Of a stretch of 52,142 bases of DNA, positions 3,998 through 10,450 are shown in pieces (position 1 is the first letter of the stretch; each line of letters begins with the position of its first letter). The notes beneath the pieces were generated by a model. It had not been told where the DNA came from and did not search any database. It saw only the letters and a list, made by a program, of their open reading frames with translations. The translations under genes and the position numbers were made by a program. Source of the DNA: a virus; IMG/VR virus record IMGVR_UViG_3300045988_100976; one strand, written 5' to 3'.

Positions 3998-4046
3998 CAC
4001 AAGGGAAAGGCAATCAAGACCTTTTATACCCTTGTGGGCGTTTTTT
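3998..4046 (+). terminator. Intrinsic terminator at the end of a ~190-nt GC-rich leader, just upstream of the terS-like start
   Basis: 8-bp stem CACAAGGG/CCCTTGTG (3998-4005 / 4029-4036), then GGCG and TTTTTT (4041-4046). Confidence 0.65.
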
Positions 4047-4079
4047 AGTACCCTAAACGATCAGAAAGGAGCGCGGAGC

Positions 4080-4727
4080 ATGGAAAAAATGGAAGCGGCA
4101 GAAGATACACAGGAAGTTTTTGAAAATGATATAGCTATGTATCTGCGGATCTTTTGCGAGGAACAAGAGATAGAGGACATGCGCGCCGCGTCTCAATCCG
4201 TATATAATGCATGTCTTAGATATATACAACGTCATGTATTTAAAGATAAAGACATATTAAAGGATAAGAGCAATGTATATAATATAAATAACAGCATCAT
4301 GAGTAACTATAACAGATACAATTATGATCTGTTAAATGATATATGTGACTATTATATATATATATCTATGTTGTATGATAAAGAAGTATCTATAATGGGT
4401 TTTTGTAATCTAACAGGGATAGATAAAGATACTGTTACAACATGGAGTAAACCGGACAGATTAAGTCCGTTGAGCATGAGCATATACAAAAAACTTTGTG
4501 AAAATAGAGAGGAATCTTTGTCAAATAAACTCGTGACTGGAAACAAGAACCCTGTTGGCGTGATAGCTGTACTCAATAGACAATTCGGTTGGGCATCGCC
4601 GTACACCAGTGACAGCAACCGTCAAAAGCAACCGCTAACAGCCGCAGAGCTGCCAAAGTTAGCGCCATCTAATTGCGCGGAAATCACAGACAAATCGGCA
4701 TCAGATCAGCCGGAAGGAGTTGTTTGA
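4080..4727 (+). CDS. Putative terminase small subunit
   Basis: ATG 4080 follows an AAAGGAG SD. The central segment GFCNLTGIDKDTVTTW is HTH-like, and the C-terminal NPVGVIAVLNRQFGW resembles the Terminase_2 signature. The call also rests on its position at the head of the late region. Confidence 0.5.
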   Translation: MEKMEAAEDTQEVFENDIAMYLRIFCEEQEIEDMRAASQSVYNACLRYIQRHVFKDKDILKDKSNVYNINNSIMSNYNRYNYDLLNDICDYYIYISMLYDKEVSIMGFCNLTGIDKDTVTTWSKPDRLSPLSMSIYKKLCENREESLSNKLVTGNKNPVGVIAVLNRQFGWASPYTSDSNRQKQPLTAAELPKLAPSNCAEITDKSASDQPEGVV

Positions 4728-5130: not shown

Positions 5131-5539
5131 AGAACACTACAGGGAACAGATAATTGATATCTGCTCTAAAGGTAAAAGACCTATAGTTGACTCTGGCAGG
5201 CTGGCAAGTTGCAGTAGGCATGATTGCAGTGGATGTCATAACTGGTATAAATCGCAGAATTTTTTCGGTACGGGTTTTTCATGCAGAGCGCAGGAGAATT
5301 TCACGAAATGGCTGGAACAGGAATATGAGCCGGCGGTCGACTGGTCGAAAGTGCCAGTAGATACCCCAATACTTGTTAAAGACGAGCGCAGCAGTGACAA
5401 ATGGTTTGAAAGACACTTTGCATATTATCATGATGGGAAAGTTTGCGCATGGAAAAACGGGAGAACAAGCTATACGACGCAACAAGATCCGCCAAGTGTA
5501 TGGCAATATGCAAAATTATACGAACAGGAGACGAAGTAA
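5120..5539 (+). CDS. Hypothetical Cys-containing protein (139 aa)
   Basis: Full ORF, tightly coupled to the MazG-like gene. Confidence 0.7.
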   Translation: MTNREHYREQIIDICSKGKRPIVDSGRLASCSRHDCSGCHNWYKSQNFFGTGFSCRAQENFTKWLEQEYEPAVDWSKVPVDTPILVKDERSSDKWFERHFAYYHDGKVCAWKNGRTSYTTQQDPPSVWQYAKLYEQETK

Positions 5540-5872
5540 ATGACAGGACATGAATACCAATTACTAGCTGCTAGGACGATCAATAAGGATCTGACAAATA
5601 AAGGCTGCGAAATGCACGCGCTGCACGGCATGGTTGGAGAAATCGGAGAACTACACAGCCTATACCAAAAGAAATACCAAGGTCATGAGTTTGACAAGCA
5701 TCACGCTATGAGTGAAATCTCCGATCTGCTTTGGTTCATTGCAGAGTATTGTTCGACAGTCGGACTGAACCTTGATGATGTGATGCAGTACAACATCGAT
5801 AAGCTGATTGCAAGATACCCGGATGGATTTTCGGAAGAAAAATCACTGCACAGGTCGGAGGGGGATATCTGA
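5540..5872 (+). CDS. mazG: MazG-like nucleotide pyrophosphohydrolase
   Basis: The pattern YQ..A.RT...GMVGEIGE...E(I)SD(L)LWF...L..V...N..KL..R is typical of the all-alpha NTP-PPase (MazG) fold. Confidence 0.8.
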   Translation: MTGHEYQLLAARTINKDLTNKGCEMHALHGMVGEIGELHSLYQKKYQGHEFDKHHAMSEISDLLWFIAEYCSTVGLNLDDVMQYNIDKLIARYPDGFSEEKSLHRSEGDI

Positions 5873-6045
5873 TGTACTTTGATGATACAGACAATGGACT
5901 TGGAAATAAGAGAAAGCGTTGCGCGAATTGCAGATATGGAGAATACGACAAAACGCAAGGATATGTATGCTGCAACGATTCAAGCGAATATGTAGCAGAT
6001 TTTGTGGAATATAATTTCTGTTGTGTGGACTACGAGGAAAAGTAA
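5872..6045 (+). CDS. Cys-rich miniprotein (57 aa)
   Basis: GGAGGGGG SD. The ATG overlaps the upstream TGA. Contains CANC...CC...CC motifs. Confidence 0.55.
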   Translation: MYFDDTDNGLGNKRKRCANCRYGEYDKTQGYVCCNDSSEYVADFVEYNFCCVDYEEK

Positions 6046-6212
6046 TGGAAATAGCGGGAAAACAGATAAATGATGAATGTACAAAATGTGCGGAACTGCT
6101 GCAATGTGAATTATTTAAGCAAGGACATGGCATAAGGCGGCCGAGATCAAATATCCGGCAGATGCTTGAATGTCAGATGAAGCATAGAGAAAAGGCAGGT
6201 GGTGCAGAATGA
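6045..6212 (+). CDS. Hypothetical miniprotein (55 aa)
   Basis: TAATG stop/start overlap with the preceding ORF. Confidence 0.45.
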   Translation: MEIAGKQINDECTKCAELLQCELFKQGHGIRRPRSNIRQMLECQMKHREKAGGAE

Positions 6213-6339
6213 AAGAGATTGCGAGAAGCCCTAAAAGGGCGGTCTGAAAGGAAAGGTTTTGTTTTATATCACAGAGTAACTAATAACACACATAATATAG
6301 CATTTTACCCCATAGGGCTTGAAATACAGCCCTATACAA

Positions 6340-6425
6340 CGAGACATGGTGTAAACGGAAAACATTGGCAGCCTTAACCCCCTCAAACCCTCTGTCAGAT
6401 GTCGGTTCGATTCCGGCTGTCTCGA
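6340..6425 (+). ncRNA. tRNA-like element (86 nt) with a 20-nt G-less, C-rich loop in place of the anticodon loop
   Basis: It has a perfect 7-bp acceptor (CGAGACA/TGTCTCG), a D-arm and a T-arm (GTCGG TTCGATT CCGGC). The anticodon-position stem GGCAG/CTGTC closes the loop CCTTAACCCCCTCAAACCCT. Confidence 0.55.
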
Positions 6426-6647
6426 TTTGTCTGAATTATTAGCCATTTTTCGGACACCCCTAAGACCCACTAGCAGAAAGCTGATTAAAGAGCCGTCACA
6501 AGGCTTGGTGGGTATCGGCGGAAATGACGCGCCGCCGGACATTGGCAGTGAAAATCAACCCGTGATTCATAGCACGACAGTTAAAGGCTGCACTCCTTTC
6601 ATAATTGTTTGGTTTGTGGGCGGTTAGTGCTTATTCGCTCACAGCAT

Positions 6648-6719
6648 AGGGCTATCGCCAAGCGGTAAGGCACAGCACTTTGACTGCTGCATTCGTAGGT
6701 TCGATTCCTACTAGCCCCA
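6648..6719 (+). tRNA. tRNA-Gln (anticodon TTG)
   Basis: Folded by hand into a cloverleaf: anticodon arm CAGCA-CTTTGAC-TGCTG, T-arm GTAGG TTCGATT CCTAC, 5-nt variable loop. Position 1:72 is an A-C mismatch. Confidence 0.75.
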
Positions 6720-6782
6720 TTTCTGCACGGCAGACTATCGTGCGCCGGAAGTATATGAGTGATTTATAAAGAACAATTTATT

Positions 6783-6983
6783 TGATGCGTGGCGGAATAG
6801 GTAAACGCTAATCAATGGTTAAGAAAAAGGTATGCGACAAGAATTGCTAGAACAAGTCCGGTAAATAGCTGTAAGCAATTATACCTATAAATCTGTTAGA
6901 AAATATAAATCCATTTATCCTTAATTGTAAGTGCGGACTAACTAACAGAATTTCATGTGTGGTGCAAATCCACACCGCATCAA
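6783..6983 (+). ncRNA. Split tRNA-like scaffold with a ~145-nt structured insert where the anticodon and variable arms would be
   Basis: The acceptor TGATGCG (6783-6789) pairs with CGCATCA (6976-6982). U8, a GG-containing D-arm (6792-6808) and the T-arm GTGTGG TGCAAAT CCACAC (6957-6975) are present. Internal helices include AGGTAT/ATACCT, AATTGC/GCAATT and CTGTTAG/CTAACAG. Confidence 0.45.
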
Positions 6984-7131
6984 TCGGTCGGGTAGCTCCC
7001 GAATAAGCAGGCGTTGTGGTAGTCCCTGCTGAAAAATCAAAACGCTTGTGTGGCTGACTTTAACTCGAATATGAAAAGAGTTGGAGCTGGTCGCACAAGA
7101 AACCGCACAACGATTGCGAGGTGTTAGCTGT

Positions 7132-7413
7132 ATGGTACAAAATTGTATAAACTGTGGTGCACCGATAGATACAGCGCATACAAAATGTCCGTATTGCGGC
7201 ACGCCATACGAGTATGATGGATTTAATGCCAAGTTTGAAAATAAAAACGCTTATGGAACATTACGAGTGGCAGACAAAGAGTATCGGGTATACTTAGGTG
7301 ATGTTGAATTTAACGGAATACCTTCGATGAATGACATATATAGAGACGAGAACGGCATAATACATCGAAATTTGCTGACAACAAAACGAAAATTTATGTT
7401 GATTGAGGTGTGA
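7132..7413 (+). CDS. Zinc-ribbon protein (93 aa)
   Basis: ATG 7132 follows a GAGGTG SD. Motif is CINCGAP...CPYCGTP. Confidence 0.65.
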   Translation: MVQNCINCGAPIDTAHTKCPYCGTPYEYDGFNAKFENKNAYGTLRVADKEYRVYLGDVEFNGIPSMNDIYRDENGIIHRNLLTTKRKFMLIEV

Positions 7414-7414
7414 T

Positions 7415-7633
7415 ATGTGTAAATTTTGCGAAAATATAGGGATTGGATTACCAGATTGGAATTTCTTACCCGAAGATGATGCGGAAATAGTTCCGGATGG
7501 GATGAAAATAGAAATCAGAAAAGTTATTGATAAAACAGCACTTGTATTTACGAATAGCGCAGATGAATACGGAGCAGGAGCAATCAATATTAGGTTCTGC
7601 CCTATGTGTGGCAGAAAGTTGGTGGAAGAATGA
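7415..7633 (+). CDS. Cys-rich miniprotein (72 aa)
   Basis: GAGGTG SD. Has CKFC at the N-terminus and CPMCG at the C-terminus. Confidence 0.6.
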   Translation: MCKFCENIGIGLPDWNFLPEDDAEIVPDGMKIEIRKVIDKTALVFTNSADEYGAGAINIRFCPMCGRKLVEE

Positions 7634-7809
7634 AAATGTTTAAAGACTGTTCAATTTGCAAATATTGTGATGAAGATCTTATTTTTGATGAAGAAACAGG
7701 AGAAGAATATCCGTTTTATATTTGTCAAAAAGGAAACGATACATCACTTGACTATGAGTGCAAGGATTTTGAAAGGTTTACGAATAATGAGTATGACAGA
7801 CGTAATTGA
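7630..7809 (+). CDS. Cys-rich miniprotein (59 aa)
   Basis: GGTGGAAG SD, start overlaps the upstream stop, motif CSICKYC. Confidence 0.55.
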   Translation: MKMFKDCSICKYCDEDLIFDEETGEEYPFYICQKGNDTSLDYECKDFERFTNNEYDRRN

Positions 7810-8692: not shown

Positions 8693-10450
8693 ATGGCATC
8701 TAAAGAACTAATCAACACAGTAAATCAATATGACAATTTTATAAAGACACATCTTGTCGATGAATCCGTAATATCTGCCTATGTAGAAGCCTGTAAGGTG
8801 GCTATAAATGGTGAAAAGGATATTGAGTATGGGTTACAACTTACAAAGCGTTCTAAGGGCATTATAGAGCAATTCTGCATGAAACAAACAGGCGGAACTA
8901 TATGGGATTTAGATTACTACCAATTCAAGCATGAAACAACGCCATATGATCTGTTAGACAAATATCTGAATATCTATAAACTGGAATCTCATTATAGGTT
9001 TGAAAGTTTTATGATCTTCATGGAAAAAAACAGGGCACCTTGGGAAAGGTTCTATTTGCCTAGACAAAATCCGTTGAAGCAAGTAGCAGATTTAATACAA
9101 GACTTATACGATGATAAACTTGACGAGGGCATGGTTTTTATGCCGGGTCGTGTGGGTAAAACTCAAATTGTAAAAATGGGTAATTTGTGGTTTGGTTCCA
9201 ACAGACCAGAAAGATCAGATTTGTATTCTGCATATTCGGATAAGATCACTGGCGGATTTTATGATGGAATATGTGAAATGATGACAGATCCAACATATAC
9301 CTATGCAGAGATTTACCCGGAAAATGTAGCAAAAAAAATTTACACAGATGGAAAAGATCTTACAATAGATCTTGTTCGCAAAAAGACATATCCAACATTT
9401 ACTTGCCGGTCAATATATGGAACGCTGAACGGAGCATGTGACTGTGATGGACTTGGAATTTATGACGATCTTTTTAGCGGTATTGATGAAGCACTAAGCG
9501 AAGATCGACAAAATACGGTATGGGGCAAATTTGACAACAACTATATGCCAAGAATGAAGCCGGGAAAAGCAAAACTTATTGGAATCGGCACAAGATGGGC
9601 GCCAAAAGACGTACAGGGCAGAAGATTAGAATTGCTGCAGAACGATCCAGAATATGCAGGAATAAGACACAGAGAGATAATTATTCCTGCACTTGATGAA
9701 AACGGAGAAAGCAATTTTGATTACCCGTACAAACTCGGCTACTCAACGCAAGACTACAAAAGACGTATGGCTTCGTTCGAGAATAACGATGATATGGCTT
9801 CATGGCTTGCACAGTATCAGCAGGAACCTATTGAACGTAAAGGGCAGATGTTTAACGTTGATACTATGAATTTCTTCAATCCGGCAGAAATCGAAGAAGT
9901 ACGACCAGATAGAATATTTGCGGCAAACGACCCAGCATATGGCGGCGGTGACTTTGTATCCATGCCTATCTGCTACGAAATTGACGGAGAATATTATGTA
10001 CTTGATGCTGTTTACAACGACGGAGATAAGGAAATAACAATACCAGAAGTAACAAGCAGAATAGAATCACATTTAGATAAATTCCCAAACAAAACTGCAG
10101 AGGTGCATTTTGAGGAAACGAAATCTACATCCAGCTACAGAACCGCTTGCGAAAAAATATGGGAAGAGGACGGATACCCAGTCAATGCAACACATGATCC
10201 GGCGGACAACAAAACTGCAAAAATGGATAGAATCAAGAATCATGCGCCGGACATACGGAAGCTGCATTTTGTAGATATGAAGCATCAAACAAAAGAGTAC
10301 AGAAAATATTTTCAAAATATCTTGTCTTGCACATATGAAGGAAAAATGAAGCATGATGATGGAGTAGATTCAACAGCGCAGCTTTGTGACATGATTTATA
10401 GCCCTAAAAGAAGAAAAAGAAAAGCTGTTATTATACAAAGCCCTATTTGA
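8693..10450 (+). CDS. terL: Terminase large subunit
   Basis: 585 aa with a Walker A-like MPGRVGKTQ and a Walker B-like GLGIYDDL, plus an acidic C-terminal nuclease-type half. It sits immediately upstream of the portal region. Confidence 0.85.
   Translation: MASKELINTVNQYDNFIKTHLVDESVISAYVEACKVAINGEKDIEYGLQLTKRSKGIIEQFCMKQTGGTIWDLDYYQFKHETTPYDLLDKYLNIYKLESHYRFESFMIFMEKNRAPWERFYLPRQNPLKQVADLIQDLYDDKLDEGMVFMPGRVGKTQIVKMGNLWFGSNRPERSDLYSAYSDKITGGFYDGICEMMTDPTYTYAEIYPENVAKKIYTDGKDLTIDLVRKKTYPTFTCRSIYGTLNGACDCDGLGIYDDLFSGIDEALSEDRQNTVWGKFDNNYMPRMKPGKAKLIGIGTRWAPKDVQGRRLELLQNDPEYAGIRHREIIIPALDENGESNFDYPYKLGYSTQDYKRRMASFENNDDMASWLAQYQQEPIERKGQMFNVDTMNFFNPAEIEEVRPDRIFAANDPAYGGGDFVSMPICYEIDGEYYVLDAVYNDGDKEITIPEVTSRIESHLDKFPNKTAEVHFEETKSTSSYRTACEKIWEEDGYPVNATHDPADNKTAKMDRIKNHAPDIRKLHFVDMKHQTKEYRKYFQNILSCTYEGKMKHDDGVDSTAQLCDMIYSPKRRKRKAVIIQSPI

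Follow-up and report, generated by a model that had tools for sequence, protein, structure and literature searches.

The RNA gene cluster at 6213-7131

The window, by which the whole stretch of DNA analysed here is meant, is a phage genome of 52,142 nt from IMG/VR (record IMGVR_UViG_3300045988_100976) with plus-strand genes in the standard code. A first-pass annotation had described its stretch 6213-7131, referred to below as the island, as gene-free, structured RNA with tRNA and tRNA-like parts. The island is a phage gene cluster for transfer RNAs (tRNAs) and non-coding RNAs (ncRNAs) on the plus strand, not a single large ornate RNA (Table 1). Its central element is a 200-nt RNA in which the frame of a leucine tRNA holds a large structured insert, here called the cargo, in place of an anticodon loop. 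This RNA belongs to a large, covarying family that is absent from Rfam and from the searchable literature, and the suggestion of a new phage ncRNA, one of two offered for the island as a whole, is supported for this part of it.

Table 1. RNA features of the island and genes in its vicinity, with positions in the window
Feature	Positions	Strand	Basis or remark
Hairpin TAGGGCT-TGAAATAC-AGCCCTA	6313-6334	+	Read from sequence; directly 5' of tRNA-shaped RNA 1
tRNA-shaped RNA 1	6340-6425	+	ARAGORN 'tRNA-Stop (tta)'; Rfam tRNA 38.5 bits
Variable spacer with local hairpins	6426-6646	+	Comparison with close relatives
Canonical tRNA-Gln, anticodon UUG	6647-6720	+	ARAGORN; Rfam tRNA 61.1 bits
200-nt tRNA-Leu-like 'chassis' RNA	6783-6982	+	Homology and covariation
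'Type-A' cargo domain	6809-6956	+	Alignment of 14 distinct members
Conserved three-hairpin module	6984-7109	+	Comparison of relatives
GP3_package match, sub-threshold	4032-4727		Sole terS-like signal
MazG-like gene	5540-5872
55-residue protein, no known kind	6045-6212		5' neighbour of the island
93-residue zinc-ribbon protein	7132-7413		3' neighbour of the island
TerL	8693-10450		phrog_38, 4e-41

That the island holds no credible gene, as first claimed, is borne out by two contigs (L019 and L031) that are 95-96% identical to the window across 5400-7635. All three open reading frames (ORFs) that had been named there are frameshifted in these relatives. In 6264-6542 (-), L019 carries 2 extra nucleotides and L031 lacks 1 nt at 6426; in 6427-6627 (+), L031 lacks 2 nt (6566-6567); and in 6942-7232 (-), both contigs have 1 extra nucleotide after 7034. 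Substitutions relative to the window concentrate in 6426-6646, and the three tRNA-shaped genes are nearly unchanged. Frameshifted ORFs, changes gathered in a spacer and spared tRNA-shaped genes are the pattern expected of RNA genes parted by spacer.

The modules of the island are also gained and lost independently of one another among relatives, since L272 breaks off in the spacer and L270 lacks the interior of the tRNA-like RNA. In both of these close relatives the loss falls at a sharp breakpoint (about 1940-2010 in L270, about 3430 in L272). L270 keeps TGATGCG...GCATCA, with 18 unrelated nucleotides in place of the interior of the 200-nt RNA. L272 diverges into a protein gene directly after GGCGGAAA, inside the CGGCGG/CCGCCG hairpin (6516-6537).

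Structure of the 200-nt RNA

The ends of the 200-nt RNA pair in a 7-bp acceptor stem (6783-6789/6976-6982, TGATGCG/CGCATCA), which is followed by U8 and G9, by a D arm of the tRNA-Leu type (stem 6792-6794/6806-6808, loop AAUAGGUAAA) and, towards the 3' end, by a 6-bp T stem (6957-6962/6970-6975) closed by the loop UGCAAAU (6963-6969). An A stands at 6983. A doubly pseudoknotted domain of 151 nt replaces the anticodon and variable region. The RNA is called by neither ARAGORN nor Rfam, and a search of a 356-nt sub-window at E ≤ 10 gave no match between 6783-6982 and the Rfam tRNA model. The earlier view that the island contains two aberrant tRNA-like scaffolds is correct, the second being tRNA-shaped RNA 1, in which the anticodon loop is enlarged to 20 nt.

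The window copy carries the three signatures by which members of the family are recognised. Its acceptor stem TGATGCG/CGCATCA is followed by TG, and it has the G7-C66 pair that is found in 103 of 103 family sequences. Its D arm at 6792-6808, GCGGAATAGGTAAACGC, conforms to the family pattern G(C/U)GG-AAUAGGUA(A/G)A-C(G/A)C. The third signature consists of (C)AU, a 6-bp T stem with the loop UGCAAAU and the 3' strand of the acceptor stem directly after it, and 6954-6982 reads CAT GTGTGG TGCAAAT CCACAC CGCATCA.

A search of cultured phages with the island (blastn, word size 11) showed that 21 EFDG1-type Enterococcus (Schiekvirus) phages contain an unannotated stretch with 71% identity to 6789-6971. 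The acceptor stems are TGATGCG/CGCATCA in the window and GTCACTG/CAGTGAC in EFDG1, and the T arms are GTGTGG-UGCAAAU-CCACAC and GTAAGG-UGCAAAU-CCTTAC respectively. Both copies have the D arm GCGGAAUAGGUAAACGC and a long insert. The same helices are thus built from different letters, and the stems differ by compensatory changes. The EFDG1 copy sits in a tRNA cluster, 2 nt after a transfer-messenger RNA (tmRNA). This phage tmRNA (KP339049, L001:2145-2492) is itself unannotated in GenBank; it scores 140.6 bits with Rfam, and ARAGORN reads the tag AKNEELLAVA*.

The closest likeness is to class II tRNA-Leu, the core of which is kept throughout the family. Shared features are the 7-bp acceptor stem, U8, the D arm GGCGGAAU.GGUAGACGC with A14, A15, G18 and G19, the invariant U at the position of U48 that accompanies A15, and the T-arm residues G53, U54, C56, A58 and C61. 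In addition, the helix that closes the central domain stops 2-3 nt (consensus C-A-U) short of the T stem, like the long variable arm of these tRNAs. In contrast to class II tRNA-Leu, the T stem has 6 bp, the extra pair covarying as G-C, A-U and G.U, which gives an acceptor/T stack of 13 bp. The T loop UGCAAAU has G at the usual U55 position, the first acceptor pair is mostly U-A or A-U instead of G-C, and CCA is not encoded. Directly past the acceptor stem, 62% of the members have A and 23% have U. The 7-nt anticodon loop is absent from the whole family; the central part of the shortest member, of 80 nt, is limited to a linker of 5 nt and a single hairpin (8 bp, with 5 nt in the loop).

The phage family and its covariation

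Two scans of IMG/VR, one with the exact 18-nt D arm and a second seeded on the T arm alone, each returned at least 120 loci, and together they place the family in more than 200 contigs. This figure is a lower bound, since both seeds are exact motifs and divergent members are missed. Among the matches listed, 98 of 123 occurrences of the D arm are followed by a T arm with UGCAAAU and then, without a gap, by 7 nt exactly complementary to those just before the D arm; these 98 complete members comprise 75 distinct sequences. The T-arm scan added, again among the matches listed, 83 further members, all distinct, in which the commonest D arm is UGGCGGAAUAGGUAGACGC. Member length within these lists ranges from 80 to 265 nt.

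When the inserts were removed and 103 distinct frames were aligned, 99.1% of the cells at scaffold pairs could pair. Changes on both sides were seen at 13 of 16 pairs, amounting to 448 cells, a value reached by none of 500 shuffles, and controls in which the scaffold was slid gave 32-51% paired. The stems covary freely and the core of the frame is almost invariant: no change is seen at G7-C66, U8, G9, A14, A15, G18 and G19, at the U preceding the T stem or in the greater part of the T loop.

The relation to tRNA-Leu is also visible in direct comparison. In a search with a family member, its D-arm part was 92-100% identical to annotated phage tRNA-Leu genes over 23-26 nt. The member in Bacillus phage SPP1 aligns end to end with the Rfam tRNA model, 50 nt replacing the anticodon arm, at 21.6 bits under lax filters against a cut-off of 29. 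ARAGORN called none of 158 family members. The end-to-end alignment at a score below the cut-off indicates that the family is tRNA-shaped and yet lies outside the tRNA family.

Cargo domains and the downstream module

The cargo of the window copy, designated type A, was aligned among 14 distinct members from the window, gut-phage contigs, L046 and EFDG1. It consists of helices P2 (6828-6833/6881-6886), P3 (6842-6848/6874-6880), P1 (6892-6899/6942-6949) and P5 (6920-6923/6928-6931) and of two pseudoknots, PK1 (6855-6860/6934-6939) and PK2 (6814-6818/6911-6915). Scaffold and cargo helices together make 52 pairs in these members, with 96.2% of the cells paired and 26 pairs showing two-sided changes, and slid controls gave 31-42%. 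Both pseudoknots take part in the covariation: the PK1 pair 6859/6935 is U-A in ten members, C-G in two and G-C in two, and a PK2 pair occurs as A-U, G-C and G-U.

Two other interpretations of this domain were considered and rejected. A tmRNA-like tag was suggested by a short ATG-GTT-AAG frame in the linker of the window, L046 and L074; the frame is absent from EFDG1, and the segment is explained by PK2. A group I intron was suggested by 'GACUAA', a motif of the cargo that is reminiscent of the group I core; this segment pairs in PK1, the insert is too small for such an intron, and none of the models matches.

Frame and cargo are separable modules, and the insert varies from one phage to another. 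The same frame, with the TGATGCG acceptor and the GTGTGG T stem, holds an unrelated 157-nt cargo in L003, L050, L058, L093 and L097. Conversely, the type-A domain occurs outside a tRNA frame. It stands alone in L205 and in L154, in the latter about 165 nt downstream of that contig's family member, and in L338 it is enclosed by a plain 9-bp helix, AATGTGGCT/AGCCACATT. Inserts are alternatively accommodated in the D loop between G18 and G19, that is between GCGGAAUAG and GUAGACGC, or in the T loop between G55 and C56, that is between UG and CAAAU.

Extra modules at these two sites measure about 20-120 nt, and both sites lie at the tRNA elbow. Those in the T loop (L032, L033, L054, L070, L071, L084, L095 and L101) have the form UG, ACUAUACGAGUA...CUCGU, CAAAU. 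Those in the D loop (L126, L148, L153, L162, L164, L171, L175, L202, L209 and L222) have the form AAUAG, ACA...AAUA, GUAGAC.

Directly 3' of the 200-nt RNA, 6984-7109 is a second conserved module, predicted from the comparison of relatives to be structured. It comprises H1 (6988-6992/6998-7002), H2 (7006-7011/7025-7030) and H3, a long variable hairpin with its base at 7045-7052/7092-7099, after which comes the conserved AAACCGCACA. Two helices picked out in the first-pass annotation fall within it and are upheld: TCGGG/CCCGA, at 6988-7002, covaries with TCCGG/CCGGA, and GCAGG/CCTGC, at 7006-7030, is conserved with one covarying closing pair. The covariation of H1 and of the H2 closing pair is between two clades only. 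The base of H3 occurs in the variants CTTGTG/CACAAG, CTGATAT/ATATCAG and CCGATGC/GCATCGG. The module follows members with type-A as well as type-B cargo, and in the window it ends 9 nt ahead of the Shine-Dalgarno sequence GAGGTG (7118-7123) of the gene at 7132.

Distribution and genomic context

The exact D arm occurs in 34 of 185,579 species genomes, as compared with more than 120 IMG/VR contigs. The 34 genomes include Weissella and Bacillus (Firmicutes), Sphingomonas (Proteobacteria), Planctomycetes, Bacteroidales and members of the candidate phyla radiation (CPR). This rarity in species genomes, spread over wide taxa, indicates that the element is phage-borne and has a very wide host range.

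A tRNA gene lies within 500 nt of 55 of 158 members, and all 101 such tRNAs are on the same strand as the member (101 to 0). The commonest neighbours, likewise on the same strand, are genes for ArpU/RinA-like activators, HNH proteins, MazG and terminase. No protein partner is consistently linked to the family, the largest cluster among ORFs within 3 kb accompanying 16 of 159 members.

Complete unannotated members were found in several cultured phages. That of SPP1 (at about 6645-6752 of NC_004166) lies between genes 9 and 11, opposite a dubious 'gene 10', that of phi3T follows a yonN homologue, and that of Lactobacillus phage Sha1 is placed between rinA and HNH/terS. LP65, ATCC 8014-B2, phiJL-1 and other Lactobacillus phages gave unannotated two-piece matches to the D arm and T arm, as seen in the search alignments. 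The element is not mentioned in the 2018 re-annotation of SPP1. 'Gene 10' itself (L268:926-1135, NC_004166 6525-6734) is a minus-strand ORF for which the record flags a conflict with the translation. Since a plus-strand family member overlaps it, 'gene 10' is probably not a gene.

Comparison with known RNA families

Rfam 15 was searched with the island (at the gathering cut-offs and at E ≤ 10), with the 356-nt sub-window (E ≤ 10) and with 36 member-bearing loci (E ≤ 0.1 and E ≤ 0.5). On the island, no family besides tRNA was matched at E ≤ 10, neither ROOL, GOLLD, raiA, tmRNA and group I introns nor the self-cleaving ribozymes. At the 36 loci, the only matches besides tRNAs were to ROOL, int-alpA and abiF, all outside the members. 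One of these is an int-alpA RNA motif (L161:585-653, minus strand, 52.9 bits), which follows a type-A member at a distance of about 230 nt; no such motif is present in the window. A full-text search of the literature, including the exact RNA and DNA motifs, found no description of the family, within the limits of the searchable literature, which is incomplete. Non-coding RNAs of tRNA-like shape are known as a kind; the frame, the 7/6 stack, the UGCAAAU loop and the interchangeable cargo at three sites are absent from Rfam 15.

The ROOL model (RF03087, cut-off 99.1 bits) does not match the island, and the same model gives 292.3 bits on L004, so that the negative result carries weight. The RNA detected there is a true ROOL (L004:3293-3916) on a 240-kb phage contig, in a tRNA array shared with a family member at L004:1725-1884. 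No match was found to GOLLD, a single RNA of about 800 nt, and the island splits into independent modules in relatives. ROOL and GOLLD RNAs resemble the island in their phage or prophage setting and adjacent tRNA genes, and differ from it in size and in modular make-up.

The 200-nt RNA resembles tmRNA, which is phage-encoded in some Herelleviridae, in its tRNA-like top half, its paired 5' and 3' ends and its large pseudoknotted middle. Unlike in tmRNA, the third acceptor pair is A-U and not G.U, the D stem is full, and no tag reading frame is conserved. Neither ARAGORN nor Rfam calls a tmRNA on the island, and both detect that of EFDG1. A group I intron in a tRNA gene finds no Rfam match either, the insert being 151 nt long and the shared flanks unable to form an anticodon arm.

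YrlA and Y RNA-like RNAs, some of them encoded by phages, are modular and join a tRNA-like acceptor/T/D domain to a further functional part. YrlA ends in a Ro-binding stem, and its tRNA-like part is distal. In the 200-nt RNA, the ends form the acceptor stem, and the topology is therefore reversed. No Rfam match to YrlA was found for the members, and no neighbour cluster within 3 kb exceeded 16 of 159 members, although no rsr-specific search was made. YrlA and Y RNA-like RNAs are mentioned in PMC12282133.

The closest parallel by context alone is provided by RNAC and RNAD (species 1 and 2) of phage T4, small stable RNAs from the tRNA region of the phage, whose roles are still unknown (PMC3014915, PMC9697503). 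T4 is not among the matches listed for the family motifs. In design, the likeness is to the tRNA-scaffold and MHV68 systems, where a tRNA frame serves for stability and for processing by tRNA enzymes and exposes a foreign structured RNA, either inside the frame or beside it. The engineered 'tRNA scaffold' for recombinant RNA is man-made, and the tRNA-miRNA units of the herpesvirus MHV68 are eukaryotic-viral. As compared with both, the family would be the natural counterpart in bacteriophages, widespread and with a conserved frame of its own.

Possible function

It is somewhat more likely than not that the tRNA frame makes the 200-nt RNA a substrate of RNase P and the tRNA 3'-end enzymes, releasing a stable RNA of which the cargo would be the effector. 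The sequences establish the fold, the modular build and the occurrence in phages, and the mechanism is an inference. The RNA would be transcribed jointly with neighbouring tRNAs, and host RNase P and tRNA 3'-end enzymes would excise it through the acceptor/T/D frame as a stable, defined RNA. By virtue of such excision, the frame would be a handle for processing and stability; it may also allow a host factor that binds tRNA to dock. The cargo domain would be the working part and would bind a host or phage component. The tRNA-shaped RNA 1 would represent a simpler second case, in which a tRNA frame presents a 20-nt C-rich loop.

Several points weigh against this reading. The RNase P and 3'-processing steps are read from shape alone, and the U-A/A-U first pair, the lack of CCA, the 13-bp stack and G55 are unusual for substrates of RNase P and tRNA enzymes. 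No tRNA lies within 2 kb of as many as 92 of the 158 members, so that co-transcription with tRNAs is not general. Members were extracted on the condition that the acceptor and T stems pair, and the percentage paired is inflated by this; the condition does not account for the fact that in about 80% of independent occurrences a matching 7-mer stands at one fixed place. The type-A structure was read from the very sequences on which it was counted, and the slid controls consequently overstate the contrast; the number of independent compensations in the type-A domain, as counted in that alignment, is still high. Folding energy by itself is unexceptional (z-score -1.97 for 6783-6982), and the earlier description of the island as heavily structured fails in this respect, while the comparative evidence does support structure. 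Also, a nearly invariant core across distant phyla exceeds the needs of a handle and hints at a specific partner such as leucyl-tRNA synthetase (LeuRS).

A wider form of the proposal is decidedly more tentative. In phages of many bacterial phyla, the anticodon-less tRNA-Leu frame could be a universal chassis with three sites for interchangeable modules, one in the D loop, one in the anticodon/variable region and one in the T loop. Once matured and stabilised by host tRNA enzymes, the modules would have targets in the host or the phage and could, for example, counter host defences as decoys or sponges. The type-A domain would then be a new functional RNA class, possibly an aptamer or a protein-binding fold.

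The main rival to the handle-plus-cargo reading takes the frame itself as the functional part, an anticodon-less mimic of tRNA-Leu that is bound or charged by LeuRS or engages another reader of the core, acting as a decoy, sponge or amino-acid donor with the insert modulating it. Bacterial LeuRS reads A73 and the tertiary core and is not known to depend on the anticodon or the variable arm. This accords with the fact that U8, A14, A15, G18, G19, U48 and the T loop hardly vary between phages whose hosts differ widely, with a D arm identical to that of real tRNA-Leu genes and with an A after the acceptor stem in the majority of the members. However, the discriminator is another base in the remaining 38%, the G in place of U55 and the 13-bp acceptor/T stack are atypical, and inserts in the D and T loops would disturb the elbow that such a partner reads. 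The type-A cargo is moreover conserved and also occurs frame-free, which argues for a function of its own. The mimic is regarded as unlikely.

Less likely again is a cis-acting regulatory leader, in which the tRNA-like fold and 6984-7109 would lie in the 5' untranslated region of a late or packaging transcript and govern read-through, processing or translation of the genes that follow. Members are often flanked, on the same strand, by late activators (RinA/ArpU-like) on one side and by HNH/terS/terL on the other, the downstream module of the window closely precedes a Shine-Dalgarno sequence, and that module is conserved although the sequence directly past AAACCGCACA differs between phages. Nevertheless, no downstream gene is conserved, the top neighbour cluster being the one of 16/159 already mentioned. 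Members also occur in the middle of tRNA arrays, the SPP1 copy is upstream of the scaffold gene and the phi3T copy after yonN. L270, from which the interior of the RNA is missing, differs in its downstream sequence too.

It is very improbable that the members are interrupted or decaying tRNA genes, the inserts being introns or junk in tRNA-Leu (in another tRNA for 6340-6425) and the products being either spliced to working tRNAs or non-functional. The tRNA-like shape, the insertions in the D loop, anticodon region and T loop, and the mosaic loci gained and lost among relatives would suit such an origin. Against it, what remains without the variable part is 27 + 29 nt of shared sequence that cannot form an anticodon arm, and the shortest member has only its single short hairpin in that place. 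No group I intron or ribozyme model matches, and pseudogenes would not give 448 compensated cells or a frame kept across phyla. Membership of, or diverged kinship with, ROOL or GOLLD, the other original suggestion, can be dismissed almost with certainty: despite the like context, with a true ROOL beside tRNAs and a family member in L004, no match appears at E ≤ 10 with lax filters, and the island consists of separable modules of 86, 74, 200 and 126 nt and not of one RNA of about 600-800 nt.

There are few tRNA-like RNAs with tasks other than decoding, such as tmRNA, Y-like RNAs and the tRNA-like structures of viruses, and every one has been instructive. Here, one conserved tRNA-Leu-type frame carries many structured inserts in hundreds of phage genomes with distant hosts, and it is unannotated even in the model phages SPP1, phi3T, LP65 and EFDG1. 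If expressed, the family would be a new, abundant class of phage ncRNA, its cargos would be a set of new conserved RNA folds, and the tRNA-scaffold trick of RNA engineering would have a natural precedent. The family also explains some 'orphan' intergenic gaps and dubious small ORFs in phage annotations, such as SPP1 'gene 10', and it can be tested directly in genetically tractable phages.

Other features of the locus

The tRNA-shaped RNA 1 has normal acceptor, D and T arms (T arm GTCGG-TTCGATT-CCGGC), and its score exceeds the 29-bit cut-off of the tRNA model (RF00005). Its anticodon stem, GGCAG/CTGTC, closes a C-rich, G-free loop of 20 nt, CCUUAACCCCCUCAAACCCU, with 17 nt where the model has 4. 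In place of a 7-nt anticodon loop with U33, the reading by ARAGORN has C at the U33 position. The label 'tRNA-Stop' is an artefact of a forced reading, and the RNA is not a decoding tRNA. A role in ochre suppression or recoding was rejected: the ORFs are intact in the standard code with no gene needing read-through, TAA, which ends 13 of 27 long ORFs, is the stop codon used most, and the loop is too long at 20 nt. The RNA is kept in five related contigs with one substitution in the loop and one change of G.U to G-C in the T stem. No antisense target complementary to the C-rich loop was found in the window except the loop itself.

Matches to the tRNA model of 90-114 nt were also seen in other phage tRNA clusters (L020:1106-1219, L123:2074-2181 and L028:395-484). 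These oversized 'tRNAs' have ordinary T loops and large inserts in the anticodon or D-loop region, from which it appears that non-decoding tRNA-shaped RNAs may be common in phages beyond the one family.

The TAGGGCT/AGCCCTA helix proposed earlier is real in the window. Its hairpin is found as the exact reverse complement (loop GTATTTCA) in L019, L031, L271 and L272 and in the window form in L270; it is a small flip-flop inversion polymorphism between 7-bp inverted repeats.

The spacer downstream contains an ACCCAC/GTGGGT three-way arrangement (about 6465-6512), the CGGCGG/CCGCCG hairpin and GTGGGCGG/TCGCTCAC (6616-6642). It holds most of the substitutions and all of the indels within the island among the 95-96% identical relatives, and is common to close relatives only. 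As a candidate structured RNA, it was rejected on this variability, on its restriction to close relatives and on a folding z-score of -0.71, no better than shuffles; it is probably a processing spacer and recombination remnant, not a conserved RNA. The CGGCGG/CCGCCG helix remains a candidate, being invariant in the close relatives L019, L031 and L270 and interrupted by the divergence of L272. A further helix suggested here, GCACT/AGTGC, is broken in L019 and L031, where the supported hairpin is GTGGGCGG/TCGCTCAC. A repeated 10-mer had also been reported; it is present at 6362-6371 and 6539-6548, the second copy one base from the position given for it. About 0.4 such repeats would be expected by chance, by our own estimate, and one copy is mutated in L019.

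The canonical tRNA-Gln seen in the first pass stands, ARAGORN and Rfam agreeing on it at a score above the 29-bit cut-off, and it is common to many related loci at 82-87% identity. The placement of the island between terS and terL was mistaken: its neighbours are the genes for the 55-residue and zinc-ribbon proteins, and TerL is encoded farther downstream.

Elsewhere in the window, a type II hammerhead ribozyme (Rfam RF02276, 64.6 bits, E 3e-11) lies at 1810-1879 on the minus strand, intergenic and upstream of the minus-strand ORF 1729-1397. Two 'half-tRNA' minihelices, at 1394-1354 (-) and 742-698 (-), stand directly past the stop codons of minus-strand genes. Each consists of an acceptor-like stem and a canonical T arm (CCGGGG-TTCAATT-CCCCGG and CCCGG-TTCGATT-CCGGG), followed by a T run. 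A similar half-tRNA element in SPP1 (L268:1168-1215) is directly 3' of the family member of that phage. Such minihelices may be 3'-end or terminator signals made on the T arm of a tRNA.

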